Shown one piece after another: positions 7,606 through 44,459 of a stretch of 44,459 nt of DNA. Where the stretch lies: positions 1 through 44,459 of the IMG/VR virus record IMGVR_UViG_3300002461_000167; one strand, written 5' to 3'. The DNA is from a virus. Made by a program: the position numbers and the translations under genes. The notes under the pieces are model-generated. The model saw only the letters and a program-made list of their open reading frames with translations. It was not told where the DNA came from and ran no database searches. Each line of letters opens with the position of its first letter. Position 1 is the stretch's first letter.

Positions 7606-7707
7606 TCCCGCGCCTTTCTAGGTGTCCGGTCCCGTGCGGACTTAAGCGCACGGCGGAAGGGTGAGCTACGACGTTGCCCACCGACTACGGCTTTCATTCT
7701 AAGTAGG

Positions 7708-7716
7708 ATTTACACG
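7708..7716 (+). promoter_or_regulatory. Copy of the over-represented 9-mer ATTTACACG, ending 1 nt before the start codon of the HTH gene 7718..7999. Candidate operator or translation-control site.
   Basis: Sequence taggATTTACACGcATGgcc. It is the same word as the half-site of the palindromes at 39883-39898 and 40143-40158. Confidence 0.4.
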
Positions 7717-7717
7717 C

Positions 7718-7999
7718 ATGGCCAAGAAAGTAAAGAAGCCGGTGCGCCCCGGTTCGGTGAAGTTCACCGCCGAGAAGCGCACCAAGGCTATTGGACTGAT
7801 GAAAGCCGGCAATGAGATTCCGGCAATCGCCAAGGTGCTGAAGCTCCACCCACAGACGCTTTACCGGGCGTTCCCCGGCGGCGCTCGGGTTGTGCGCGGT
7901 GATGCACCCTACGCGAAGCGCAAGAAGGCCAAGAAGGTTGCGGCGCCCGTCCGCGCGCCCGCCAAGAAGCCCGCCGCCAAGAAGCGCGCAGCGTGGTGA
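7718..7999 (+). CDS. Helix-turn-helix DNA-binding protein with a lysine/alanine/proline-rich, histone-H1-like C-terminal tail.
   Basis: The HTH-like segment is EIPAIAKVLKLHPQTLYRAF. The tail is KRKKAKKVAAPVRAPAKKPAAKKRAAW. Confidence 0.6.
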   Translation: MAKKVKKPVRPGSVKFTAEKRTKAIGLMKAGNEIPAIAKVLKLHPQTLYRAFPGGARVVRGDAPYAKRKKAKKVAAPVRAPAKKPAAKKRAAW

Positions 8000-8003
8000 C
8001 GAG

Positions 8004-9152
8004 ATGACCGAACCGGTGCACAGCAAGCTCGGTGCCAGTGGTGCGTCCCGATGGATGGCGTGCCCCGGTTCGGTCGCTTTGACCGCTGCCTTGGGAAAGG
8101 GCGGCGACGACGAGTCCGAATTCGCCGCTGAAGGAACCGCCGCCCATGAAGTTGCCGCTGAATGTCTCCGCACTGTATCGGATGCATGGGAACACGTTGG
8201 ACGGACCTTCCATAACCATGTCCTCGATTATGACATGGCTGACCACGTGCAAACGTACATCAATGAATGCCGGCGCATATCTGTTGGCGCTGAAACGTGG
8301 ATTGAACACCGCATCACCTCCAATCTACATGCCGATTTGTTTGGCACGATGGACTTTGCCGCTCTAAGCGAATACAGCCTGAAGCTGCGGGACTTGAAGT
8401 TCGGCGCCGGGCTGACGGTCGAAGTGGAAGACAATGCACAGTTGAAGTATTACGCGTTCGGGATGCTACAGACCCCGGACCTATTCGACGGCGTGCGCTA
8501 TGTCGAGATTGGCATTGTGCAGCCGCGCAAGGATCATCCCAACGGCCCGGTGCGCGTGGTCACCCACACCGCCGAGGAAATCCACGAGTGGGGACACGGC
8601 GTTCTCATTCCGATGATGAAACGCACCGAGCGCGACCACACGTTGGACCCCGGCGAACATTGCCGCTTCTGTCCGGCGCGGTTCGTGTGCCCAGCGCTGC
8701 AAGGTATATTCCAGTACGCCAGCCAGACGCCGCCAACCTCGGTGCGCGAGCTGTCCGACACCATGCTTGGCCTTGCGTACCGCGCGACGGGGCCGGCCCG
8801 GATCTTTATCAACGCTATCGAGACGGAAGCGTTGTCGCGTTTAAATAACGGTAAGAAGGTGCCCGGCCTGAAGCTGGTAGACAAGCGCGCCGACCGGGTT
8901 TACCGTGACGGTGCAACCGACGTGCTGGTCAAGGCGTTCGGCAAGAAGGCATATACCGAGCCGGCCTTGCGCACGCCTGCGCAAATGGAAAAGCTCGGGC
9001 CGGAAGCCGTGGCACTGGTCAAGAAATGGGCGTACACGCCGAAGACGGGACAGACGGTCGCGAGCGACGAAGACCGCCGCGCCACCGTCACCCGCCAAAG
9101 CGGCAAAGAAGTGTGGAAGGGTGTAGTCAATGGTACAGACGACGAGTGGTGA
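8004..9152 (+). CDS. PD-(D/E)XK nuclease with a Cas4-like C-terminal cysteine cluster (recalled as DUF2800-type phage exonuclease).
   Basis: The N-terminus KLGASGASRWMACPGS matches my recollection of DUF2800. Cysteine cluster is CRFCPARFVCP. It sits next to an SSB-like gene and DNA polymerase, as in known phage replication modules. Start taken at ATG 8004. Confidence 0.7.
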   Translation: MTEPVHSKLGASGASRWMACPGSVALTAALGKGGDDESEFAAEGTAAHEVAAECLRTVSDAWEHVGRTFHNHVLDYDMADHVQTYINECRRISVGAETWIEHRITSNLHADLFGTMDFAALSEYSLKLRDLKFGAGLTVEVEDNAQLKYYAFGMLQTPDLFDGVRYVEIGIVQPRKDHPNGPVRVVTHTAEEIHEWGHGVLIPMMKRTERDHTLDPGEHCRFCPARFVCPALQGIFQYASQTPPTSVRELSDTMLGLAYRATGPARIFINAIETEALSRLNNGKKVPGLKLVDKRADRVYRDGATDVLVKAFGKKAYTEPALRTPAQMEKLGPEAVALVKKWAYTPKTGQTVASDEDRRATVTRQSGKEVWKGVVNGTDDEW

Positions 9153-9624
9153 TGATGGTTCCGATTGGCCGACACAGGCGCAGGTTCCGAACTTTTACGG
9201 CGCAGTTGGGCAAAATCAAGTTCGGTACACGCCGCCCTATGCTTTCTATCTCTACGATTCGCGCCAAGTCATCAAATCCATATCGCTCCACGAACTTGTT
9301 GTGGAATCGGCGGACGCTGTATTTAAGGCCGTGCTGGCAGCCTACGGCGAAGCGGAAATCGACCGGCTGCATTTAAATCGTTTCTTCGGAAGCCTGAACG
9401 TGCGCGCCATGCGCGGCGGGCGTTCCTACTCAATGCACAGTTGGGGTATCGCGCTGGACTTCGACGCGAACCGGAATCAACTGCGATGGGACCACACACG
9501 CGCCGCCTTTGCTCATGCTGATTATGAGAAGTGGTGGCAGTGTTGGGAAGCCGAGGGATGGACTTCCCTCGGTCGTGAACGGGATTACGACTGGATGCAT
9601 GTTCAGGCGGCGTATCTCGGTTAG
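9130..9624 (+). CDS. Peptidase M15 (VanY / L-alanyl-D-glutamate peptidase type) cell-wall hydrolase; probable endolysin.
   Basis: Zinc-ligand pattern SMHSWGIALDFD ... DYDWMHVQ (SxHxxGxAxD ... DxxH). Confidence 0.75.
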   Translation: MVQTTSGDDGSDWPTQAQVPNFYGAVGQNQVRYTPPYAFYLYDSRQVIKSISLHELVVESADAVFKAVLAAYGEAEIDRLHLNRFFGSLNVRAMRGGRSYSMHSWGIALDFDANRNQLRWDHTRAAFAHADYEKWWQCWEAEGWTSLGRERDYDWMHVQAAYLG

Positions 9625-15955: not shown

Positions 15956-16519
15956 ATGCGAGATGCGATCAATAAGCGAACCGGCAAGCCTATCCCGGAA
16001 GCCATCCTCAAAGCACGGGCGGACCAACAGGCGCAGATTCGCCCGGTGGAAGGACAGCGGGATTTCTATACCGGTGCCGTCCGCTTTGGGGAAGGCGTCC
16101 ACGGCGCCAAGTACAACCCGCCGGGCGACGTTGGCCCCGAGGCAATGGGTGGCGAAGCGCCGCGCGTCCTGAACCCCAAGGATGCCGCTGCACAGGGCAA
16201 GGTCCGTCTCGGGCTGCTACCGGCCGCCGGGATGATCCACGGGGCGCTGGCAGCCACGGACGGGGCGGACAAGTACGGTCCTTACAACTGGCGCACCGGC
16301 CCGGCCATCAGCTTCATGACCTACCTCGACGCACTGGAGCGCCATATCATGGCCCTGCGCGACGGCGAGACGTATGACATGAAGTCCGGCGTGCACCACC
16401 TCGGGCACGTCATCGCGGGCGCTGCCATCATCCTGGACGCCACCGCGCTCGGCCAGTGTGTGGATGACCGGCCATCAGTCGGGCCGGCCGCTTCGCTGCT
16501 GCACATGAATCAGCGTTAG
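15956..16519 (+). CDS. All-alpha NTP pyrophosphohydrolase-like protein (recalled as the DUF5664 / dATP-dGTP diphosphohydrolase MazZ N-terminal domain family).
   Basis: GADKYGPYNWRTG...YLDALERHIMALRDGETYDMKSGVHHLGHVIAGAAIILDA matches the remembered family pattern (KYG..NW ... RH..a...ge..D.eSGl.HLaH). GGAG Shine-Dalgarno sequence 8 nt upstream. Confidence 0.6.
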   Translation: MRDAINKRTGKPIPEAILKARADQQAQIRPVEGQRDFYTGAVRFGEGVHGAKYNPPGDVGPEAMGGEAPRVLNPKDAAAQGKVRLGLLPAAGMIHGALAATDGADKYGPYNWRTGPAISFMTYLDALERHIMALRDGETYDMKSGVHHLGHVIAGAAIILDATALGQCVDDRPSVGPAASLLHMNQR

Positions 16520-30198: not shown

Positions 30199-30732
30199 TT
30201 AGATGACGAACTGGCCGGCGAGCCGGATGCGGCCCGTGCCAGTGCCCACAGCCGTCGAAGGCATCATGGACACGTCAAAGAAGCCGCCCGGATCTTCGGT
30301 GAGGCCGGCGGCCTGCCAAAGCGGCAAGTCGTGCTCGGCGACCGTGTAGCCCGGCGACGTGGTGGCGATAAGCTCGACGCCCTGGATGGCAGCGGTATTG
30401 GCCAGCGCAGCCGTAAAGAAGTCGGCGTCGATGACCAGCCCGAGCTTGTCCAGCGGAGTGCCGTCGCCCTGATTGTCGCTGTAGTGCAGGCCGACGTTCC
30501 ACGCGGTGGACGCGCCGTTCGCCTCGGCCCAGATTTTCAGGCTCTTGACCTTGGCGTTCGACTTGACGCGAAGCACGCGATAGATGCTCGCGGTATCGCT
30601 CGCGGCGATGACAGTGACCACGCCATCGGCGTGACGAAGAACGCCACCCGCGCCGTCGCCCGAGTAGACCTGTCGATACGGCCGGGCATTCAACCCGGTA
30701 AGACCAGCGGACTTTACTAGATCAGTTGCCAT
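30199..30732 (-). CDS. Capsid decoration / cement-like protein candidate (177 aa).
   Basis: Immediately downstream of the major capsid gene. GAGGTA Shine-Dalgarno sequence. Beta-rich sequence. The call rests on position only. Confidence 0.4.
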   Translation of the reverse strand: MATDLVKSAGLTGLNARPYRQVYSGDGAGGVLRHADGVVTVIAASDTASIYRVLRVKSNAKVKSLKIWAEANGASTAWNVGLHYSDNQGDGTPLDKLGLVIDADFFTAALANTAAIQGVELIATTSPGYTVAEHDLPLWQAAGLTEDPGGFFDVSMMPSTAVGTGTGRIRLAGQFVI

Positions 30733-38844: not shown

Positions 38845-39405
38845 TTGGTCACCTCGGCCCCTAATGTAGCACGGCATTCCAGTTTTTTGGATCCAAATTT
38901 TTTGTGGTTTATCAAGGGGTTACCCGATGTATATTGTGTAAATTTTCCAAAACGCGCGAAAAAGCTCCTTTCATGGCAAATAATGGCGGGGCGCTCTCGG
39001 GCGGCCCCACCCCCGCCGGCACCCCGGTCTTTTACATCGTTCAGTTGTATATGCGGCATACTATATGCGGTGGATTCAATGAGGCCATGACACTAGATGT
39101 GGTATGCTTCCATTCGCATAACATACATTATGGAATGTGTATCGCACCACATGCTAATGCGAATGATTAGCAACTGGCACAGTGCAAGGTGTGCGTGTGG
39201 CCAGTTGCCTGGATAATCGAGGGCTATTGCCAGTTGGCTCGATACCGTGCTATCAACCCGCTATGCCGTGGTAATATTAGAGAATAGTCCCGGACTCTCT
39301 ATCATATCACGGTAGATATATGTTCTTATACAATATAATATATATATAGTAATATATTGTGTAAGACAGGCTAGTGTCTAATACTGACTTGGAAAGGATA
39401 AACTA
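38845..39405. promoter_or_regulatory. A/T-rich divergent control region between terS and the first early gene. Candidate origin, pac site or promoter hub with several repeat families.
   Basis: No convincing ORF. TATATGCGG occurs twice (39048, 39062). Inverted repeat CATTCGCAT/ATGCGAATG (39111-19 / 39157-65). GCCAGTTG occurs three times (39171-78 inverted, 39200-07, 39229-36). Inverted repeat ACAATATA/TATATTGT (39330-37 / 39353-60) flanks an (AT)n run. Confidence 0.6.
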
Positions 39406-39864
39406 ATGCAACGTACATCCGTCAATGCCACGGCTAAGCAAACTATCCTCGATATGATTGACGCATCACCCGAGGGCTATATCACTCGCAAGGCTGCCAG
39501 CGACAAGCTCAAATCAATGGGCATCGGCCAAGCCTATCAATTGAACAATGCCATCGTCCAGCTATCGCTATTCGCCAAGGGTGGCGCGCTGATGCGTGGC
39601 AAGCTAACCCCGCGCAAAGTGAATACACGTTGGGGGCGTGCGCCACGCTCACCTTATGCCGATGTCACATGGTTGGAAGATGTCATCGCAGAAGGTGCAA
39701 CGCTCGGGGCTATCGTCAAGCGTGCCAACGATGACCACGTGACCATTGCACGACTCGTTGCCGCGATGGCTGCCACGGGTGATGATTTCAAGCTGCTATT
39801 GGTCAATGATCCGACCAAAACCGCGCTACCTGGTAAACATCAGGATACGGACGAAACCTGGTAA
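39406..39864 (+). CDS. First early protein (152 aa), possibly winged-helix-like at the N-terminus.
   Basis: GGAAAGGA Shine-Dalgarno sequence 8 nt upstream. Lower G+C than the late genes. Confidence 0.6.
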   Translation: MQRTSVNATAKQTILDMIDASPEGYITRKAASDKLKSMGIGQAYQLNNAIVQLSLFAKGGALMRGKLTPRKVNTRWGRAPRSPYADVTWLEDVIAEGATLGAIVKRANDDHVTIARLVAAMAATGDDFKLLLVNDPTKTALPGKHQDTDETW

Positions 39865-39882
39865 CAATATATTCATGCCTCA

Positions 39883-39898
39883 CGTGTAGATTTACACG
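39883..39898. promoter_or_regulatory. 16-bp near-perfect palindrome CGTGTAGATTTACACG: two inverted ATTTACACG-type half-sites. Candidate operator.
   Basis: 7 of 8 symmetric base pairs. Lies in the 64-nt gap between early genes 1 and 2. Confidence 0.5.
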
Positions 39899-39928
39899 CA
39901 TCGACCATCAAACAAGGGAATACACACC

Positions 39929-40123
39929 ATGCGATATTCTTTCTTCTTGGCTTGTGCCATCATCACGGTGTCGGCACTCGTGCACGCGTCCAATATGGAA
40001 AATCAGCTAACCATCGCAGACCGTGCGTGCGTCGGTGCTATCATCCAGCTAGACATTGAGCACGAGGCACGAGCCAAAGCGATTGCGCGCGAGCTATACA
40101 AAAGGCTTGTGCCAACAATCTAG
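39929..40123 (+). CDS. Small secreted or membrane early protein (64 aa).
   Basis: AAGGGAA Shine-Dalgarno sequence. N-terminus MRYSFFLACAIITVSALVHA is signal-peptide-like. Confidence 0.55.
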   Translation: MRYSFFLACAIITVSALVHASNMENQLTIADRACVGAIIQLDIEHEARAKAIARELYKRLVPTI

Positions 40124-40142
40124 TTGCGAATCATTCGAGTCA

Positions 40143-40158
40143 CGTGTAAATCTACACT
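40143..40158. promoter_or_regulatory. Second palindrome of the same family, CGTGTAAATCTACACT, in the opposite polarity.
   Basis: 6 of 8 symmetric base pairs. Contains an exact CGTGTAAAT (= ATTTACACG on the minus strand). Lies in the gap between early genes 2 and 3. Confidence 0.45.
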
Positions 40159-40188
40159 GGTCAACGCAACCAAGGGGAAATGACTACC

Positions 40189-40410
40189 ATGTACAGCAAG
40201 CAAGTTATCATCGCGGAAAGCAAGGATTTCACGCTCACAAGCTTTGGCAATGGTGATGCCTATTCGCTGGCCAAGAATGGCCAAGAAGATGAATCGGTGT
40301 TTGTCCAGGGCGACGACGCGACTCAATTTCGTGAAGAATATGATGCGCTTTTTGAGCTGGACGGCAACGTGTCGGCTCTAGCGGCGATGTGGTGGAATTA
40401 CACGCCCTAG
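40189..40410 (+). CDS. Small highly acidic early protein (73 aa).
   Basis: AAGGGGAA is 9 nt upstream of ATG 40189. By my count there are 13 D/E and 4 K/R residues. Confidence 0.55.
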   Translation: MYSKQVIIAESKDFTLTSFGNGDAYSLAKNGQEDESVFVQGDDATQFREEYDALFELDGNVSALAAMWWNYTP

Positions 40411-40479
40411 TCCATTTGGCTGGCCATGCTCACCCGTGGCCAGCGACGTGCACTAGAGTCCAACCAAGGGGAAATGACT
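40408..40479 (+). repeat. Early intergenic cassette copy R1 (degenerate): stop codon, hairpin, TGCACTA box, AACCAAGGGGAAATGAC RBS.
   Basis: TAGTCCA... Stem CTGGCCA (40420-26) pairs with TGGCCAG (40437-43). TGCACTA at 40449-55. AACCAAGGGGAAATGACT precedes ATG 40480. Confidence 0.6.
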
Positions 40480-40896
40480 ATGAAGGTTCATTGCTACTCG
40501 ACTGAAGCCAAGGCCGAACGCGCGGCTGCCAAATTCCGCGATGCGTTCCCTAAGCGTCGATTTGCGGCCGTGCTCTATCCCGGCACCACGTTAGACCCGC
40601 AGTTCGGCTATGCCGTGTCAATGCAAGATGATGCCGGCCACCTCGCGTATTGTCCGCGTTTCAAATCGCCACCCAAAGCCGTGGCGCGAATCACTTGCTA
40701 CGATGTGGGCAAAGGTCTCATTGAGATTGCCAATACATCGCCACCGACTCGCGTGATGGCAGTTCGCATCGAGCGCAGCCGGCACAAGGCGCGCACTGAC
40801 TATTGGTTTCGGTTCAACGGTAAAGCTTATTGGGGCTTCCTTGGCCATGATGGTACGGCGTTTAGTGCCAAGCAAGTTCAAACGATACCGCGCTGA
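40480..40896 (+). CDS. Hypothetical early protein (138 aa)
   Basis: The second ATG of the conserved GGGGAAATGACTATG context lies 7 nt from the Shine-Dalgarno sequence. Confidence 0.6.
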   Translation: MKVHCYSTEAKAERAAAKFRDAFPKRRFAAVLYPGTTLDPQFGYAVSMQDDAGHLAYCPRFKSPPKAVARITCYDVGKGLIEIANTSPPTRVMAVRIERSRHKARTDYWFRFNGKAYWGFLGHDGTAFSAKQVQTIPR

Positions 40897-40970
40897 ATAG
40901 TCCAGCGCATTGGCCATGGTACGCCGTGGCCTTTGCCCTGCACTAGCAGGACAACCAAGGGGAAATGACA
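40894..40970 (+). repeat. Early intergenic cassette copy R2.
   Basis: TGAATAGTCCAGCGCATT. Stem GGCCATGG-TACG-CCGTGGCC at 40912-31. Then TTTGCCC, TGCACTA at 40939-45, and AACCAAGGGGAAATGACA. More than 90% identical to R3 and R4. Confidence 0.85.
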
Positions 40971-41225
40971 ATGTATCAAGCCATTCGCACTAAATACATC
41001 GGGCCGCGCAACGTGCGGGGCTCACGCGTCAAGGCCATCGCTGAAGCCGGGTCTGTCACCCTGGAATGGGATGATGGCTTGAACGATATCGAAAACCACA
41101 AGGCAGCCTGTCGCGCCATTCTCGTGAAGTTCGGTTGGCGTGGCCAGTACATGGGCGGCGCATTCGGTAGCGGCGAATATGTTTGGGTACATGCTGGCGA
41201 GTCGCGCTACAGCGTGATGATCTAA
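40971..41225 (+). CDS. Hypothetical early protein (84 aa)
   Basis: Conserved RBS context. Sequence YIGPRNVRGSRVKA...NHKAACRAILVKFGW; no function known to me. Confidence 0.6.
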   Translation: MYQAIRTKYIGPRNVRGSRVKAIAEAGSVTLEWDDGLNDIENHKAACRAILVKFGWRGQYMGGAFGSGEYVWVHAGESRYSVMI

Positions 41226-41237
41226 GGGGAAATGACA

Positions 41238-41471
41238 ATGAGCTTCGACCATAACCCCGACAAGAATCCCGACTGGTCACCAAAGATGGCCTATCGAGTC
41301 TATGCGTGCTGCAAATGCGGCACGGAACACAAAATGAGCACGAATCACACCGGCACGGTATGGAATGCACGCTGCAAAGGTTCATGCCGCACCATCCTCA
41401 ATCCACATACAGCGCGCGAAGTCGTGCTAGCGTACCACGGGCCGCACGAGTTCAAACACGACGCGGAATAG
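41238..41471 (+). CDS. Small Cys-rich (zinc-ribbon-like) early protein (77 aa).
   Basis: TAAGGGGAAATGACAATG context. Contains CCKCG...CKGSC. Confidence 0.55.
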   Translation: MSFDHNPDKNPDWSPKMAYRVYACCKCGTEHKMSTNHTGTVWNARCKGSCRTILNPHTAREVVLAYHGPHEFKHDAE

Positions 41472-41543
41472 TCTAGCGCATTGGCCATGGTACGCCGTGG
41501 CCTTTGCCCTGCACTATCGCAGGTAACCAAGGGGAATGAACAC
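41466..41543 (+). repeat. Early intergenic cassette copy R3.
   Basis: GAATAGTCTAGCGCATT. Hairpin at 41483-41502. TGCACTA at 41510-16. Then AACCAAGGGGAATGAACAC. Identical to R4 apart from a 2-nt indel before the ATG. Confidence 0.9.
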
Positions 41544-41819
41544 ATGGCTAAGCTTTCAACAGTCGACAGTTCACGCGGCGCACCGATGGGGCGTACCAGT
41601 GTTCCGCGCACGCCAACCGAGCGAGTCCACTTGCGCCGCATCCGAATCAATTCGGGCGGCTATGACTCGGGCGGCGCCTATTGGGGAGTCGGGCAAGCGT
41701 TGTGGCACGCGTGCGAATACAAGCCCGATGGCTTGGACATTTTCTTCCGCGCCAAAGATCGCACGGCCGCTAAGGCTCACGTTCTCGCGCGGTATCTGTC
41801 CGCCAAGTTCTACCGCTAA
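41544..41819 (+). CDS. Hypothetical early protein (91 aa)
   Basis: ATG 41544 lies after the cassette RBS. Sequence RGAPMGRTS...INSGGYDSGGAYWGVGQALW. Confidence 0.6.
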   Translation: MAKLSTVDSSRGAPMGRTSVPRTPTERVHLRRIRINSGGYDSGGAYWGVGQALWHACEYKPDGLDIFFRAKDRTAAKAHVLARYLSAKFYR

Positions 41820-41835
41820 CAAGGGAGTCGGTGCA

Positions 41836-42036
41836 ATGTCTCGTCTCGTGTTTAGATTGGCTGTGGTTTGCGAGGGTGACGCGTTCAAACCGGCGGCCGT
41901 GCCGGAAATCGTGAGCATCCTGCGAACGCTGGCCGAACGTATCGAAGCCGGTCACCTCACTCACGAGGCTAAGCCGGTGCGTGATATCACGGGCCAAATT
42001 GTCGGCTCGGTTCAATGTATGCCCGAGACTGAATAG
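41836..42036 (+). CDS. Hypothetical early protein (66 aa)
   Basis: AAGGGAG Shine-Dalgarno sequence 8 nt upstream of ATG 41836. In the track it is hidden inside a longer ORF (41536..42036) whose upstream part looks non-coding. Confidence 0.5.
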   Translation: MSRLVFRLAVVCEGDAFKPAAVPEIVSILRTLAERIEAGHLTHEAKPVRDITGQIVGSVQCMPETE

Positions 42037-42106
42037 TCTAGCGCATTGGCCATGGTACGCCGTGGCCTTTGCCCTGCACTATCGCAGGTAACCAAGGGGA
42101 ATGAAC
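42031..42106 (+). repeat. Early intergenic cassette copy R4.
   Basis: GAATAGTCTAGCGCATT. Hairpin at 42048-67. TGCACTA at 42075-81. Then AACCAAGGGGAATGAAC. Confidence 0.9.
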
Positions 42107-42820
42107 ATGGAAACGATTTACAGCATGGGCGCGAGTGCAAGCGCTAAGGCAGCGGCAAAGGCCAAAGCCGACAAGTACGTGACGACAAAGGGCGCCAAGC
42201 CCACAACAGCCAAGAAGGCACTGCCAGCGGCCGTCAAGGGTGACAAGCCGGTTTATGACGGCAATCGCGAGAAGTGGCTTCAGGCAGCCACGGCGGCCGT
42301 TGACAAGTGGTTTTTTGATTTGGGCTATCCGCTGCCTGCAACGCGCGTCTCGGTCGGCTTCACTTCCAAGGGTGCACGGTCAAACCGCATCGGCGAATGT
42401 TGGGATGGCAAAATGAGTGCCGATGGCAGCTACCAGATTTTTATTCACCCGCAAGAATCCGATAGCTTGAAGGTTTTCGGCATCCTCGTGCACGAGTTGA
42501 TTCACGCGGCCGTCGGGCTGAAGGCCAAACACGGCCGCAAGTTCGGCGACGTTGGACGCGCGCTAGGCTTTGAAGGCAAGGCCGCGCAAATGCACAAGGG
42601 CGCCGCGTTTGAAGAGGCAGCCAAGCCGATACTCGCCAAGCTTGGCCCGATACCGCACGCGCGGCTGAAGCCGGGTGAAAGCACGACAGGCAAAAAGCAA
42701 CCGACTCGCATGATCAAATGCGAATGCCCGAAGTGCGGCTATCTTGCGCGTACAACTCCCAAGTGGATCGAGGCCGGCGGCAAGCCGATTTGCCCGGTCC
42801 ATATGATCAGGATGAAATGA
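42107..42820 (+). CDS. SprT-like zinc metalloprotease with a C-terminal zinc ribbon.
   Basis: HELIHAAVG (HExxH) preceded by IFIHPQESD. C-terminus is CECPKCGY...ICPVH. K/A-rich N-terminus. Confidence 0.65.
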   Translation: METIYSMGASASAKAAAKAKADKYVTTKGAKPTTAKKALPAAVKGDKPVYDGNREKWLQAATAAVDKWFFDLGYPLPATRVSVGFTSKGARSNRIGECWDGKMSADGSYQIFIHPQESDSLKVFGILVHELIHAAVGLKAKHGRKFGDVGRALGFEGKAAQMHKGAAFEEAAKPILAKLGPIPHARLKPGESTTGKKQPTRMIKCECPKCGYLARTTPKWIEAGGKPICPVHMIRMK

Positions 42821-42954
42821 ACACTCCCACGGCGCGTTTGTTCACGGAAAATATACACATCGGGTTTAAGGTGGCCGTTAGGTGGAGAACCCACTTGACG
42901 GCCATTTGCTTGGCGTGTATTCCTAACGCGGCCAACAATCGAAGGGGTACGGCA

Positions 42955-43164
42955 ATGAGCGATTGGGAACTTTGGAAGGATATTTTCGCCGAGTGGGGCA
43001 TGGTGCTTTTGCGTGTGATACGGTGGGCGTGCGCAACCTTTGCCGTCCTCACCCTGCTGTGGCTCGAATTGGAATTCTGGCCAGTGTCGGGCGTGCTCAC
43101 GGTTGGCGTGGTCGTCACGTGGTTCATTCTGTGGTCGCACAACCGGGTACGCAATAAGGATTAG
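42955..43164 (+). CDS. Small two-TM membrane protein (69 aa).
   Basis: GAAGGGG Shine-Dalgarno sequence 7 nt upstream. Hydrophobic segments WACATFAVLTLLWL and GVLTVGVVVTWFILW. Confidence 0.5.
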   Translation: MSDWELWKDIFAEWGMVLLRVIRWACATFAVLTLLWLELEFWPVSGVLTVGVVVTWFILWSHNRVRNKD

Positions 43165-43234
43165 TTCATGCCATTGGCGCTCGCGGGCGCTAACGGCCTG
43201 CACTAATGCAGGGCAACCCAAAGGGGAAAGTATC
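43162..43234 (+). repeat. Early intergenic cassette copy R5 (degenerate).
   Basis: TAGTTCATGCCATTGG... CCTGCACTAATGCAGG hairpin with TGCACTA at 43199-205. Then AACCCAAAGGGGAAAG before ATG 43235. Confidence 0.55.
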
Positions 43235-43444
43235 ATGAAGGAATTTTTCATTGCTGCAACCATCGCGGTGGCCGTCGTGCTTGCCGCTATGTGGGCCACC
43301 GCGCAGGCGGCGAGCGCCGGCACCATCCACACCGATGATCGCGTGTACGACTCGCGGCTCGCCAAGCGCACCAATGGCTACGGCAACCCGCCCGCCGAGC
43401 GCATCCAAATCCTCGTGCCGCCCTTCATGATGATTGCGGCCTAA
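43235..43444 (+). CDS. Small secreted protein (69 aa, signal peptide).
   Basis: N-terminus MKEFFIAATIAVAVVLAAMWATAQA followed by a polar mature part. Confidence 0.55.
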   Translation: MKEFFIAATIAVAVVLAAMWATAQAASAGTIHTDDRVYDSRLAKRTNGYGNPPAERIQILVPPFMMIAA

Positions 43445-43447
43445 GCC

Positions 43448-43711
43448 ATGACATTCGGACTCGGCGTTGCGCTCGGTTGGATCTTGGGAATCATCAGCGG
43501 CCTGTGGGCAATCCACGGAATACGACAGGACTTGCTAGATGCCCTTGCCAAACTGCGCGCCGCCGAGGCTGATTTGCATGGCATGTCTCGGGGACGGGTG
43601 GACCTGGACGGAACTTTCGCACCCGGTGATCACAACATGCGGGTTGAAAATTGTGTTTGTGTGGATGGCGTGTACCACGTGCGCGGGGTCGGGCCGGCTG
43701 GAGGTGTATGA
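43448..43711 (+). CDS. Small N-terminally membrane-anchored protein (87 aa).
   Basis: TM segment FGLGVALGWILGIISGLWAI. The start lies 3 nt after the upstream stop. Confidence 0.5.
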   Translation: MTFGLGVALGWILGIISGLWAIHGIRQDLLDALAKLRAAEADLHGMSRGRVDLDGTFAPGDHNMRVENCVCVDGVYHVRGVGPAGGV

Positions 43712-43797
43712 TGGCTGAAGCTTTTTATTGGGCCGGCCTTGGCGCTGTAGCGCTCGGGCTGCTATGGCTGCACTACCGATTTAAACCCGCCAAGTAG
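43708..43797 (+). CDS. Very small single-TM peptide (29 aa); not in the supplied ORF track.
   Basis: GGAGG is 4 nt upstream of ATGATG at 43708. Peptide is MMAEAFYWAGLGAVALGLLWLHYRFKPAK. Overlaps the upstream stop (ATGA). Confidence 0.4.
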   Translation: MMAEAFYWAGLGAVALGLLWLHYRFKPAK

Positions 43798-43801
43798 GCC
43801 G

Positions 43802-43830
43802 TTGACCCTGCAACCTTGAACGGCTATACT
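43802..43830 (+). promoter_or_regulatory. Near-consensus sigma70-type promoter upstream of the tailspike gene: TTGACC-17 nt-TATACT.
   Basis: Sequence read directly: TTGACCctgcaaccttgaacggcTATACT, 36 nt upstream of ATG 43866. Confidence 0.6.
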
Positions 43831-43865
43831 CCGCCGCTGCAACCCAGCGCGTGGAGTTTCCGCCT

Positions 43866-44459
43866 ATGGCCGTTCCCTATTTCCCGCAGACCTTGCCCGC
43901 AAACACCTTGGTTGGCCGTCTCGGGTCTAACGGCCCAACTGAAGCCATCCCCATTGCCAGTCTATTCGGCGACTTCGGCACCACCGAAATGTACGCCACG
44001 CGCGCCGCGTTCCAAGCTACCACGGTGGCGCCGCTTGTCACGTTCGTCTATCTCGCCGGCTACGCGGCCGTAGGCGATGGCGGCAACGCCTACTTCAAGC
44101 GCGTGGTTGCGGAACCCGTGCACGCGGGCAAGGTCCAGTCGGCGGACGGCGCATGGTTCGAATTGGTGCCGGGCGAATGTGTGAAGCCCGAGCAATTCGG
44201 TGCCTTCCCTGCAAGCGCTGATTGTTCGGCGCTCATGCTCGCCGCGACTGTCGCCGCTGTGGCGCTCGGTACATGGCTGGAGCTTCCCGAGCGCACATAC
44301 CGCGCCGCGTTCATTCCGCCGACCAATTCGAAAATTCGTGGCCAACACAATTTCCGGTCGAAGATCGTTCGCCCGCTTGCCTCGGTCTTGAACTATGTCC
44401 TTTTCGCCAACGGCGCCAGCGGCTACGTTTGGGAAAATTTCATGGTCGACGGCGACCGC
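43866..44459 (+). CDS. Tailspike gene, 5' part. It runs off the window end and continues at 1..880.
   Basis: ATG 43866 with GGAG upstream. No stop before the window end. Sequence MAVPYFPQTLPANTLVGRLG...YLAGYAAVGDGGNAYFKR. The last 94 nt duplicate bases 1-94. Confidence 0.65.
   Translation, partial: MAVPYFPQTLPANTLVGRLGSNGPTEAIPIASLFGDFGTTEMYATRAAFQATTVAPLVTFVYLAGYAAVGDGGNAYFKRVVAEPVHAGKVQSADGAWFELVPGECVKPEQFGAFPASADCSALMLAATVAAVALGTWLELPERTYRAAFIPPTNSKIRGQHNFRSKIVRPLASVLNYVLFANGASGYVWENFMVDGDR
44366..44459. repeat. Right copy of the terminal direct repeat (identical to 1-94).
   Basis: Exact 94/94 identity by eye. Confidence 0.95.

Follow-up and report, generated by a model that had tools for sequence, protein, structure and literature searches.

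An uncultured 44-kb phage carries a run of small early genes that are set apart by five copies of a structured cassette, which raises the question of what a single sequence might be doing between genes that have nothing else in common. The genome is podovirus-like and encodes T7-like replication genes, and its proteins include a gp2.5-like annealing protein and exonucleases. Among the phage proteins scanned no phage RNA polymerase was found. The genes that flank the cassettes are mostly ORFans, and gene-to-gene comparison bore out the earlier view that they are unrelated to one another. Throughout, the window refers to the whole 44,459-nt stretch of DNA that was analysed; all five cassettes lie on its + strand.

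Five copies of a portable cassette

All five copies of the original prediction were recovered in their places: R1 (40406..40482), R2 (40894..40973), R3 (41466..41546), R4 (42031..42109) and the diverged R5 (43160..43237). As had been claimed, R2-R4 exceed 90% identity (91-100% among themselves), R1 and R5 are diverged, and the spacing of R2-R3-R4 is 571 and 565 nt. Specifically, R3 (41466-41542) and R4 (42031-42107) are 100% identical over 77 nt, R2 shares 91-92% identity with both, and R1 is 81% identical to R2 across 64 nt. A covariance model that was trained on R1-R4 only, with R5 left out, scored its four members at 66.2, 80.3, 81.2 and 81.2 bits, respectively, and also retrieved R5 (23.4 bits, E=1.9e-5); it did not find a sixth copy in the window.

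As a portable unit, the cassette fills the interval between the upstream gene's stop codon and the downstream gene's start codon, both included. A long imperfect RNA hairpin, the base of which includes that stop codon, comes first, and a uniform ribosome-binding region made up of AACCAAGGGGAA, a spacer and the ATG follows. These building blocks are strongly overrepresented in the window. For example, GGCCATGGTACGCCGTGGCC occurs three times where no occurrence is expected, CTGCACTA six times against 0.58 expected, and AACCAAGGGGAA, with two or fewer mismatches allowed, ten times against 2.25 expected. Four of the six CTGCACTA occurrences are within R2-R5 and two are outside the cassettes, at 30482 (- strand) and 43768; in the position where R2-R5 have CTGCACTA, R1 carries GTGCACTA.

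No homologue of the cassette was found in any public collection searched. Rfam 15 gave no match to the whole window at gathering scores, and at E<=1 the sole match within 39200-44459 was a weak and unrelated one at 44062-44104. A search of bacterial genomes also gave no match, using a pattern that included the SD sequence, so that a bare host palindrome would be missed.

The long hairpin and its competing fold

The original prediction had placed two small hairpins in each cassette, one of 8 bp and the other around a TGCACTA box. The 8-bp stem and the box are both present, but they are not separate elements, since both fall within one long, imperfect hairpin of 48-52 nt and 19-20 bp, at the base of which N-UAGU (usually containing the upstream stop codon) pairs with ACUA-N'. 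This hairpin spans 40407-40456 in R1, 40897-40946 in R2, 41468-41517 in R3, 42033-42082 in R4 and 43160-43207 in R5. In R2-R4 its upper stem consists of 8 bp, is G+C-rich, and is closed by a UACG loop and followed by UUUGCC, while in R5 the succession is 6 bp, a 1x1 mismatch, 2 bp, a 1x1 mismatch, 3 bp, a 1x1 mismatch and 8 bp, with a CGCG loop. The second small hairpin can be folded in R2-R5 (at 40937-40950, 41508-41523, 42073-42088 and 43197-43212, respectively), but it is missing from R1 and is incompatible with the long hairpin, with whose basal stem it competes.

The claim that each cassette starts at the upstream stop codon holds with one adjustment. The stop is a TAG within the stem in R1 (40408-40410, ending a 73-aa gene), R3 (41469-41471, ending a 77-aa gene), R4 (42034-42036, ending a 66-aa gene) and R5 (43162-43164, ending a 69-aa gene), whereas the 138-aa gene before R2 ends in frame at the TGA (40894-40896) of TGAATAG. 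Downstream, the SD sequence is located at 40462-40473 in R1 (AACCAAGGGGAA), at 40953-40964 in R2, at 41525-41536 in R3 and at 42090-42101 in R4, and takes the form AAAGGGGAA in R5; the real ATGs are at 40480, 40971, 41544, 42107 and 43235. The conserved ATGAC-N-ATG had been read as a double start. Its first ATG belongs to the conserved spacer and only the second is the real start, and in R3 the two are mutually out of frame.

Folding predictions agree that the hairpin is stable, as a single long structure rather than as two small ones. It is the minimum-free-energy fold of each 48-52-nt core, with z-scores of -3.4 to -6.0 (-28.8 kcal/mol and z -5.96 for R1, -27.5 and -4.66 for R2, -26.7 and -5.19 for R3, and -22.2 and -3.41 for R5). 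In local context it remains the minimum-free-energy structure in R1, R3, R4 and R5, and in R2 it lies 2.4 kcal/mol above that structure. When longer context is included, the two-hairpin alternative becomes nearly isoenergetic with the long hairpin in R2-R4. In these three copies the two folds are only 0.6-2.4 kcal/mol apart.

Comparison of the copies further supports the long hairpin. Within the alignment 94.7% of cells pair and 7 of the 19 pairs have changed on both sides, values that were reached in 0-1 of 500 shuffles, and slid controls paired at only 27-39%. The outermost pair, for example, is C-G in R1, A-U in R3 and R4, and U-A in R5. These covariation statistics rest on few events because the copies reduce to three independent sequence types (R1, R2-4 and R5). 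Conservation is unevenly distributed along the stem: in the diverged copies the basal helix (UAGU-C-NA / UG-C-ACUA, with a conserved pyrimidine.C mismatch) is 86-93% identical, and the upper part is only 53-56% identical with its pairing kept. The structure is also strand-specific. Owing to G.U pairs the + strand is 0.6-3.8 kcal/mol more stable than the - strand, and its model score is higher by about 50 bits for R1-R4 and by about 10 bits for R5.

Gain or loss of a two-gene block by recombination between cassettes

Recombination between two cassette copies has added a two-gene block to, or removed it from, natural variants of this phage. The block is a 571-bp module (40946..41516, + strand) containing an 84-aa gene (40971-41225) and a 77-aa gene (41238-41471). 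It is present here and missing from a short form that occurs in four other assemblies of the same metagenome project, whose raw reads are under PRJNA301005. These four (L087, L094, L095 and L102), each from a separate sequencing run, represent a near-identical phage (98.7-99.8% identity), and in each of them the 138-aa gene is joined to one chimeric cassette with the 5′ part of R2 and the 3′ part of R3. Three of the contigs (L087, L094 and L095) reach beyond the chimeric cassette, and there it leads to a 91-aa gene. The crossover lies within a shared stretch, where 40904-40945 is identical to 41475-41516. In addition, a fifth assembly, a 39,990-nt contig, ends at ...CTGCACTA, which is the exact point where long and short forms diverge. 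The k127 contig names would imply that every 127-mer across the junction is present in the reads.

The stem of the chimeric cassette (82 bits, -28.5 kcal/mol) is better than that of R2, in which the outermost pair is an A.G mismatch. This mismatch is what might be expected if a 5′ half of the A...U type had been joined to a 3′ half of the C...G type. Because the long form is known from one assembly only, the order of the long and short forms can only be inferred.

Together, the chimeric cassettes of the short forms and the break in the fifth contig directly support one of the roles first suggested for these repeats, that of recombination or shuffling boundaries like the promoter-early stem-loop (PeSL) cassettes of T4-type phages (Arbiol et al. 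2010, PMC2839356; Comeau et al. 2014, PMC4122927). At the DNA level the cassettes act as PeSL-like recombination linkers. By sequence they also appear much like PeSLs: they contain a stable stem-loop (z -3.4 to -6.0), end in an SD sequence, and adjoin small ORFan genes in a variable region, in which indels of one or a few ORFs distinguish close relatives and leave one chimeric motif at each junction. Indeed, the 571-bp indel of the four assemblies, at whose branch point the fifth breaks, has the topology of ORF192 in RB49 versus phi1 (PMC2839356). There are also differences. PeSLs carry a strong sigma-70-like early promoter with -35, -10 and an AT-rich upstream region (PMC2839356), whereas our scan found neither a sigma-70 promoter nor an AT-rich upstream part in the cassettes. 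The PeSL stem is a short GGGG/CCCC one, and that of the G+C-rich cassette is a long helix of 19-20 bp including the stop codon. PeSLs also reside in T4-like myoviruses rather than in a 44-kb podovirus-like genome. A further property of PeSLs is the formation of excised mini-circles during infection (PMC2839356; PMC4122927).

Proposed role of the hairpin in early mRNA and its alternatives

With slightly better than even confidence, we propose that the cassette combines this function as a recombination linker in DNA with a second one as a processing or stabilising hairpin in RNA. For the RNA function, helix geometry and strand bias suggest that, within a polycistronic early mRNA, the hairpin may serve as a site of RNase III-type processing or as a stabilising element. 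A comparable arrangement is found in the early region of T7, which contains the RNase III sites R0.3, R0.5, R1, R1.1 and R1.3. Sites of this type carry no antideterminant base pairs in the proximal and distal boxes that surround the point of cleavage. Like those sites, the cassettes are mutually similar hairpins of about two helical turns, broken by internal mismatches and repeated between early genes, within what we infer to be a polycistronic transcript of the host polymerase. They have no sequence similarity to the T7 sites, which contain a larger asymmetric internal loop; moreover, the stem here incorporates a stop codon and has a sequence-invariant basal helix, no T7-type RNA polymerase was found in the phage, and the cassette is a putative cleavage site. 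RNase III substrates comprise two helical turns in which internal loops restrict cleavage and leave protective 3′ hairpins (PMC1540722; PMC6212723), so that the upstream mRNA ends in such a hairpin (PMC1540722). The long hairpin has 19-20 bp, 22-23 stacked positions, and 1x1 and 2x2 mismatches, in line with the quasi-continuous helix required, in which internal loops or mismatches are frequent (PMC1540722). Its G.U pairs favour the + strand, presumably the transcribed one. RNase III processing as in T7, a role that had been suggested for these repeats, is therefore plausible for a covarying, strand-specific helix of two turns, which qualifies as a predicted substrate.

According to this proposal, the 50-80 bp of cassette sequence shared between copies would act as a homology patch, and recombination between cassettes, probably performed by the T7-like annealing and exonuclease proteins of the phage itself, would add or remove gene blocks while leaving neighbouring genes unharmed. 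Promoters in the AT-rich region near 39.3 kb would drive transcription of the early genes into a single polycistronic message; a sequence scan found no promoter or canonical terminator between these genes. With about two helical turns and internal mismatches, the hairpin could be cut by host RNase III or otherwise block 3′ exonucleases. The long message would thereby break up into stable mRNAs of one or two genes, each with a protective hairpin at its end and an exposed, uniform ribosome-binding site at its start.

REP/BIME, ERIC and the Correia elements of Neisseria are small palindromic repeats of bacterial operons that fold in mRNA, alter its stability or processing, and are hot spots of rearrangement. 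The cassettes resemble them as short imperfect palindromes in transcribed intergenic spacers. However, these elements are present in tens to hundreds of copies per bacterial chromosome, some with dedicated transposases, whereas the cassettes amount to five copies in one phage operon, in a single orientation and each fused to a ribosome-binding region.

One feature does not follow from RNase III processing: the near-invariant UAGU...CUGCACUA is left unexplained because RNase III needs no sequence-conserved basal helix, and the stop codon accounts for only three of the near-invariant positions. It is conceivable, if unlikely, that the cassette is a translation-sensing RNA switch. The upstream stop codon lies in the invariant basal helix, so a terminating ribosome would have to melt that helix, and melting would free CCUGCACUA to pair with GCAGG as the alternative hairpin. 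A phage- or host-encoded protein devoted to this task, such as a recombination factor or a sequence-specific endoribonuclease, might read the invariant basal helix and could in this way couple the end of translation in one gene to processing, decay or initiation at the following gene. The switch would also account for a base conserved in sequence under a top conserved in shape only.

A similarly low probability attaches to the suggestion that the cassettes are leaky intrinsic terminators with re-initiation signals, which would partly stop host RNA polymerase and create a descending gradient of early expression. The G+C-rich upper stem and UACG loop of R2-R4 with the UUU behind them give this suggestion weak support, as do the PeSL stem-loops of T4-type phages, which terminate transcription (PMC2839356). 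However, the U-rich tract of an intrinsic terminator is lacking: the tail of R2-R4 has 4 T in 10 nt with one run of 3, in R1 and R5 no more than 2 of the 10 nt past the upper stem are T, with no run, and past the long stem there are 0-1 T in every copy. Likewise, a terminator scan of the + strand flagged no cassette, the conserved and covarying lower stem would be without purpose, and four terminators in series would nearly silence the conserved SprT-like gene that they precede. In contrast, the strongest candidate in this region for a genuine intrinsic terminator is a separate, near-perfect 17-bp hairpin located after the SprT-like gene (42868..42913, + strand) and followed by UUUGCUUGG.

The repeats might also be functionless, undecayed left-overs of a recent tandem duplication or gene conversion, as the adjacency of R2-R4, their 92-100% identity and the absence of the cassette from all other collections searched would allow. 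We regard this as quite improbable: R1 and R5 have drifted down to 53-56% identity in the upper stem with pairing kept through changes on both sides, and they retain the basal helix and the SD sequence. The genes between copies are unrelated, and therefore no gene-plus-spacer unit was duplicated. At the same early-region position, L023, a related phage, carries a structured repeat of a different sort.

More doubtful still is a site-specific recombination site like integron attC, whose folded single strand would be recognised by a dedicated recombinase. In shape the two are alike: each promoterless gene cassette, consisting of an ORF or ORF pair, has directly at its 3′ end an imperfect palindrome of about 50 nt, in which a sequence-conserved base carries a variable centre. 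The gene cassettes are also gained and lost as units, and the indel is bounded exactly by two copies, with one chimeric site remaining. But the base reads UAGUC/CACUA instead of the RYYYAAC/GTTRRRY core sites, the mismatches are all symmetric with no extrahelical bases, and no integrase or other recombinase family was found in a non-exhaustive protein scan. Furthermore, the G.U pairs favour structure in the transcribed + strand as RNA, and at least about 42 nt of perfect identity suffices for ordinary homologous recombination by T7-like machinery.

Least probable is that the TGCACTA box is a promoter element from which each cassette starts a new transcript. PeSLs, the closest known analogue, do contain promoters (PMC2839356), and a sigma-54-type version could be read from the cassettes. 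In sigma-54 promoters GG at -24 and GC at -12 keep a fixed distance within the TGGCAC-N5-TTGCA (or TTGCW) consensus; TGGCC-N7-CTGCA in R2-R4 has the 12 nt between GG and GC, and TGGC-N8-TGCA is correctly spaced in R1-R4, with intervening bases that differ between R1 and R2. But in R5 the GG/GC spacing is 14 nt, agreement with the consensus is poor beyond GG and GC, the scan found no sigma-70 -35/-10 pair in any cassette, the candidate -10 (CACTAT/G/A) has by eye neither the conserved T at -7 nor a -35 partner, and neither an activator nor a phage RNA polymerase was found among the proteins scanned. Both motifs are already explained by structure, since TGGCC forms the 3′ arm of the upper stem and CUGCACUA, like the box, forms the 3′ side of the basal stem, which pairs with the stop-codon region and has a covarying outer pair.

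The translation-initiation half of the cassette also occurs by itself. One such half (CAACCAAGGGGAAATGACTACCATG) is positioned upstream of the 73-aa gene at 40167..40191 (+ strand), where it lacks the long hairpin, and a second (GATCTAAGGGGAAATGACAATG) is found within the module, between the 84-aa and 77-aa genes at 41219..41240 (+ strand).

Five cassettes with a common RNA architecture

The five intergenic cassettes that the original prediction placed between the small early genes are all present where it put them, each on the + strand (R1, 40406-40482; R2, 40894-40973; R3, 41466-41546; R4, 42031-42109; R5, 43160-43237). R3 matches R4 exactly over 77 nt (100%), R2 is 91-92% identical to both, and R1 shares 81% identity with R2 over 64 nt. 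A covariance model built from R1-R4 alone recovered R5 at E=1.9e-5 and found no further copy in the window. The upper hairpin sequence occurs three times in the window versus 0 expected, and CTGCACTA six times versus 0.58 expected, with four of the six within R2-R5; R1 carries GTGCACTA. The flanking genes, predicted to be unrelated, proved so when compared with one another, and most are without an annotated family, the exception being the SprT-like protein after R4. Tandem duplication of gene-plus-spacer units was rejected, as the genes of two units are unrelated. Genes in the rest of the genome overlap or are almost contiguous, and the ~70-nt spacers are therefore a special feature of the cassette operon.

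The 3′ half of the cassette is a common translation-initiation region, in which AACCAAGGGGAA is followed by AATGAC-N-ATG or TGAAC-ATG and the second ATG lies 8-9 nt past the Shine-Dalgarno (SD) sequence. The double-start context proposed for this region is present, but the first ATG is too near the SD and the second is the start; indeed, the two are out of frame in R3, and the second is the start in the gene calls of the ENA contigs. Copies of the initiation region that lack the hairpin occur at 40167-40191 and 41219-40. These two share one initiation subtype with R1 and R2, while R3 and R4 share another, which makes R2 a mosaic with an R3/R4-like 5′ half and an R1-like 3′ half.

Each cassette core was folded alone, with z-scores taken against shuffles, and one architecture emerged in all five copies. 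The upper hairpin and the TGCACTA box had been described as parts of separate hairpins; both are present, but folding assigns them to one long hairpin. Its basal stem (4-6 bp) pairs N-UAGU with ACUA-N′, its middle stems (1-3 bp each) are separated by single mismatches, a 2x2 UU/UU internal loop is present in R2-R4, and its upper stem (8-10 bp) closes a loop of 4-6 nt. Altogether 19-20 bp extend across 22-23 stacked positions, or about two helical turns, with energies of -22.2 to -28.8 kcal/mol and z-scores of -3.4 to -6.0. From this shared fold, the TGCACTA box is the 3′ strand of the lower stem. The strand that pairs with it contains TAG, and in R1, R3, R4 and R5 this TAG is the in-frame stop; in R2 the stop is a TGA four bases upstream of the stem TAG.

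In the cassette alignment 94.7% of cells are paired and 7 of 19 pairs are changed on both sides. The observed pairing values were reached by 0-1 of 500 shuffles, and pairing fell to 27-39% in a control with the partner columns slid. The outermost pair, for example, is C-G in R1, A-U in R3/R4 and U-A in R5. In the basal helix the sequence hardly varies (12-13 of 14 positions invariant), and the upper part keeps its pairing at 53-56% identity. G.U pairs (U22.G31 in all copies, U8.G45 in R3/R4) would become A.C mismatches on the opposite strand, the + strand fold is 0.6-3.8 kcal/mol more stable than that of the other strand, and the model score favors the + strand by ~50 bits for R1-R4 and ~10 bits for R5. 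These strand preferences point to a structure formed by the coding-strand RNA rather than to a DNA cruciform. The proposed second hairpin (CCUGC-loop-GCAGG) was found in R2-R5 but is missing from R1, and it shows no covariation. Because it uses basal-stem bases it is mutually exclusive with the long hairpin, and in R2-R4 the two folds lie 0.6-2.4 kcal/mol apart in a context-dependent manner.

Cassettes as recombination boundaries

Five ENA assemblies from an activated-carbon metagenome (PRJNA301005) contain near-identical contigs, and in four of them a chimeric R2/R3 junction supports the proposal that the cassettes are boundaries for recombination or shuffling. The longest is L087 (ERZ922818; 8,844 nt, 99.7% to the window), which lacks the 84-aa and 77-aa genes and has the order 138-aa gene, single cassette, 91-aa gene. 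Its cassette is chimeric, with a 5′ part from R2 (TAGTCC) and a 3′ part from R3 (ACTATCGCAGGTAACC...). The same junction is found in L094 (ERZ922816; 2,731 nt, 98.7-99.2%) and L095 (ERZ922821; 858 nt, 99.6%), and at the end of L102 (ERZ922815; 887 nt, 99.4%). In the fifth assembly, ERZ922817, the 4,757-nt end of a 39,990-nt contig (L100) is 99.9% identical to the window and stops exactly at ...CTGCACTA, the last base common to the long form seen in the window and the short form without the module; the next contig (L097) restarts inside the 91-aa gene. Since an assembler breaks contigs in this way when both forms are present, the ERZ922817 sample seems to hold both. The k127 contig names would imply that each junction 127-mer occurs in the reads. 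As a separate observation, at ~825-835 of L102 (window 40894-40896) TTA replaces the TGA stop of the 138-aa gene; this variant, which could be a sequencing error, would extend the 138-aa protein through the whole cassette to a TGA in GGGGAATGA.

What separates the two forms is exactly one unit of 571 bp (40946-41516), running from cassette to cassette, and the crossover maps within 40904-40945, a segment identical to 41475-41516. In the chimeric cassette the outer pair is a perfect A-U, and this cassette has the top score of all copies (82 bits, -28.5 kcal/mol). In the long form the outer pair of R2 is an A.G mismatch, the expected product of joining an A...U-type 5′ half to a C...G-type 3′ half. 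This sequence signature suggests that the long form may have arisen by insertion of the module from a donor with the same cassette family. In T7, a gp2.5-type annealing protein and exonucleases are the machinery that recombines short homologies, and the gp2.5-like annealing protein and exonucleases of this phage presumably carry out cassette recombination. At the DNA level, in these assemblies, the cassettes act as homology linkers through which whole gene blocks are gained or lost cleanly, and the data set catches such module gain or loss in a natural population. The idea of mobile regulatory cassettes driving modular shuffling, familiar from T4-type myoviruses, thereby also covers an uncultured podovirus-like lineage unrelated to them, whose linker is promoter-less and joins a long RNA hairpin to a uniform ribosome-binding site.

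Candidate roles in the early message

At the RNA level, we infer that the hairpin is a putative processing or stabilising element of the early message. RNase III sites are placed between the early genes of T7, and the predicted hairpins of the window are alike in position and geometry. Both hairpin length and interrupted-helix geometry match bacterial RNase III substrates, for which a span of two helical turns is the chief determinant and in which internal loops limit cleavage so that a protective 3′ hairpin remains (PMC1540722; PMC6212723). The early genes would be read as one host-made polycistronic message, in which each cassette hairpin would be cut by RNase III or would merely block 3′ exonucleases, yielding stable mRNA units with exposed, uniform ribosome-binding sites. 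Such processing does not explain why the basal helix is invariant in sequence outside the stop codon, or why an alternative hairpin is nearly isoenergetic, and both points could accommodate a translation-coupled switch or a protein dedicated to binding the cassette. If the hairpins are processing sites, a virus lacking its own RNA polymerase could use them to divide its host-made early message into stable units, and synthetic operons might make use of the cassette as a small, portable "stop codon, insulator, start codon" part.

In genome-evolution behavior the cassettes resemble the promoter-early stem-loop cassettes (PeSLs) of T4-type phages, for which block gain and loss by linkers has been described (PMC2839356). 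PeSLs, however, are defined by a promoter, and a promoter scan found no sigma-70-like site in any cassette, contrary to the suggestion that the TGCACTA box might be a promoter element; the best cassette -10 candidate is without a conserved final T. Because this test failed, we do not file the cassettes as PeSLs. Nor do the cassettes resemble canonical terminators, with no U-run after either stem in R1 and R5 and UUU at most in R2-R4. A much better terminator candidate is the 17-bp near-perfect hairpin followed by UUUGCUUGG at 42868-42913, 3′ of the SprT-like gene and upstream of R5, and its predicted fold probably marks the true end of the first early transcription unit. Promoters for a phage RNA polymerase were rejected, as no RNA polymerase family was seen among the scanned proteins and Pfam gave no match for the 828-aa gene that follows the early region. 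A sigma-54-like TGGC-N8-TGCA occurs in R1-R4 but not R5, and both halves are already explained as stem strands. Having failed the respective tests, the cassettes are classed neither as intrinsic terminators nor as attC sites, and a tRNA or Rfam identity was dismissed, with no Rfam match to the cassette and no tRNA in the window.

Distribution and genome context

BLASTN, pattern scans and the covariance model found no homologue of the cassette in the collections searched; the original prediction had proposed such searches in related phages and hosts. When the cassette alone was compared by BLASTN with cultured phages and plasmids, the matches were all short (E ~2-3) and lay in unrelated coding genes. 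Isolated matches only, either coding or without a second copy, came from exact-pattern scans of IMG/VR with CCGTGGCCNNNGNCNTGCACTA and with TGCACTA-N3-12-AACCAAGGGGAA. The same outcome was obtained in JGI metagenomes and GTDB genomes with TAGTNNA-N28-40-TGCACTA-N3-12-AACCAAGGGG. The GTDB scan, a single one over one genome per species, used this SD-containing pattern and would have missed an SD-less host REP-like palindrome. Over 87 fetched loci (0.99 Mb), 80 of them from TerL relatives with 36-53% identical terminase, the sole match of the covariance model was the near-identical L087. A terminator-like hairpin with TTTGGCATGCACTAT after the tRNA cluster of an unrelated phage (L002, L005) was treated as chance.

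The closest homologues of the SprT-like protein are 57% identical or less and those of the 84-aa protein ~69% or less over most of its length, and their gene arrays are tightly packed, with no cassette-like spacers. MW202898, the closest deposited relative by portal protein, differs in its early region. A terminase relative at 48% identity (L023) has its own 76-nt multi-hairpin repeat on the - strand, with two copies 309 nt apart (7773-7848 and 8082-8157; 96% identical), one after each of the first two early genes and both beginning at a TAG stop. This repeat has no sequence similarity to the window cassette, and such a different structured repeat after early genes leads us to propose that structured repeated spacers may be a habit of the lineage, with fast-changing sequence. 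Separately, CCTTTGCC[A/C]TGCACTAT recurs in L023 (~7690-7710, - strand), where it spans the SD and start of a 148-aa gene (SD-to-start region), in L002 (7986-8007) and in the window (41499-41516). A close variant, CCTTTGGCATGCACTAT, follows the terminator-like hairpin in L002 and L005. The recurrence may be coincidental or may be left over from common ancestry.

Window bases 1-94 are identical to 44366-44459 (94 nt), which identifies a circular assembly of ~44,365 bp, and the gene starting at 43867 runs on across the end junction. The proteins have exact look-up matches on a 44,459-nt contig of NCBI WGS set LNFM01. By portal protein the nearest cultured relatives are Ralstonia phages RpY1, DU_RP_II and C22 (44% identity); at the DNA level, BLASTN matched the region to none of the cultured phages. 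The genome encodes a primase-helicase, a helicase, a family-A DNA polymerase, exonucleases and the gp2.5-like annealing protein, as well as tail, portal and terminase proteins and a T7-lysozyme-like amidase, and no integrase was found among the proteins scanned. The amidase (15956-16519), whose PHROG family is annotated 'endolysin; inhibits RNA polymerase', is present despite the lack of a T7-type RNA polymerase, and another endolysin-like gene is located at 9130-9624.

The best sigma-70-like promoter of the region (43802-43830; TTGACC-17-TATACT, 10/12 matches) immediately precedes the functionally unassigned 828-aa gene. At 857/858, inside this gene, the window lacks 28 nt (AGGCATCGCCGCCATACGGTTCGCCGGT) present in two other assemblies (L087 5393-5420; L097 3638-3665), and the window version of the gene reads as two ORFs, 43867 to 880 and 922-1959; the indel reflects either a genuine frameshift variant or a mistake in assembly. 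The other L100/L097 contig break in ERZ922817 is also inside this gene.

Structural genes occupy the - strand from 38.9 to 17.6 kb, and small genes the + strand from 39.4 kb past the window end into the replication genes; by this layout the small + strand genes would be early. Both blocks diverge from an AT-rich segment at 38.9-39.4 kb with promoter-like sites. Within this divergent control region, between the terminase and early operons, a very AT-rich near-palindrome, ATACAATATAATATATATAGTAATATAT (39328-39357), is overlapped by several - strand promoter-like matches and may be a promoter cluster or an origin. A second intergenic motif, CGTGTAGATTTACAC, occupies the first spacer of the early operon (39884-39898), with its exact reverse complement in the second (40143-40157), and L023 carries a related motif, CACGTGTAGA, in its control region. 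As RNA, CGTGTAGATTTACAC forms a weak 5-6-bp hairpin (z ~0), and its two copies in opposite orientation suggest a putative protein-binding site at the DNA level.
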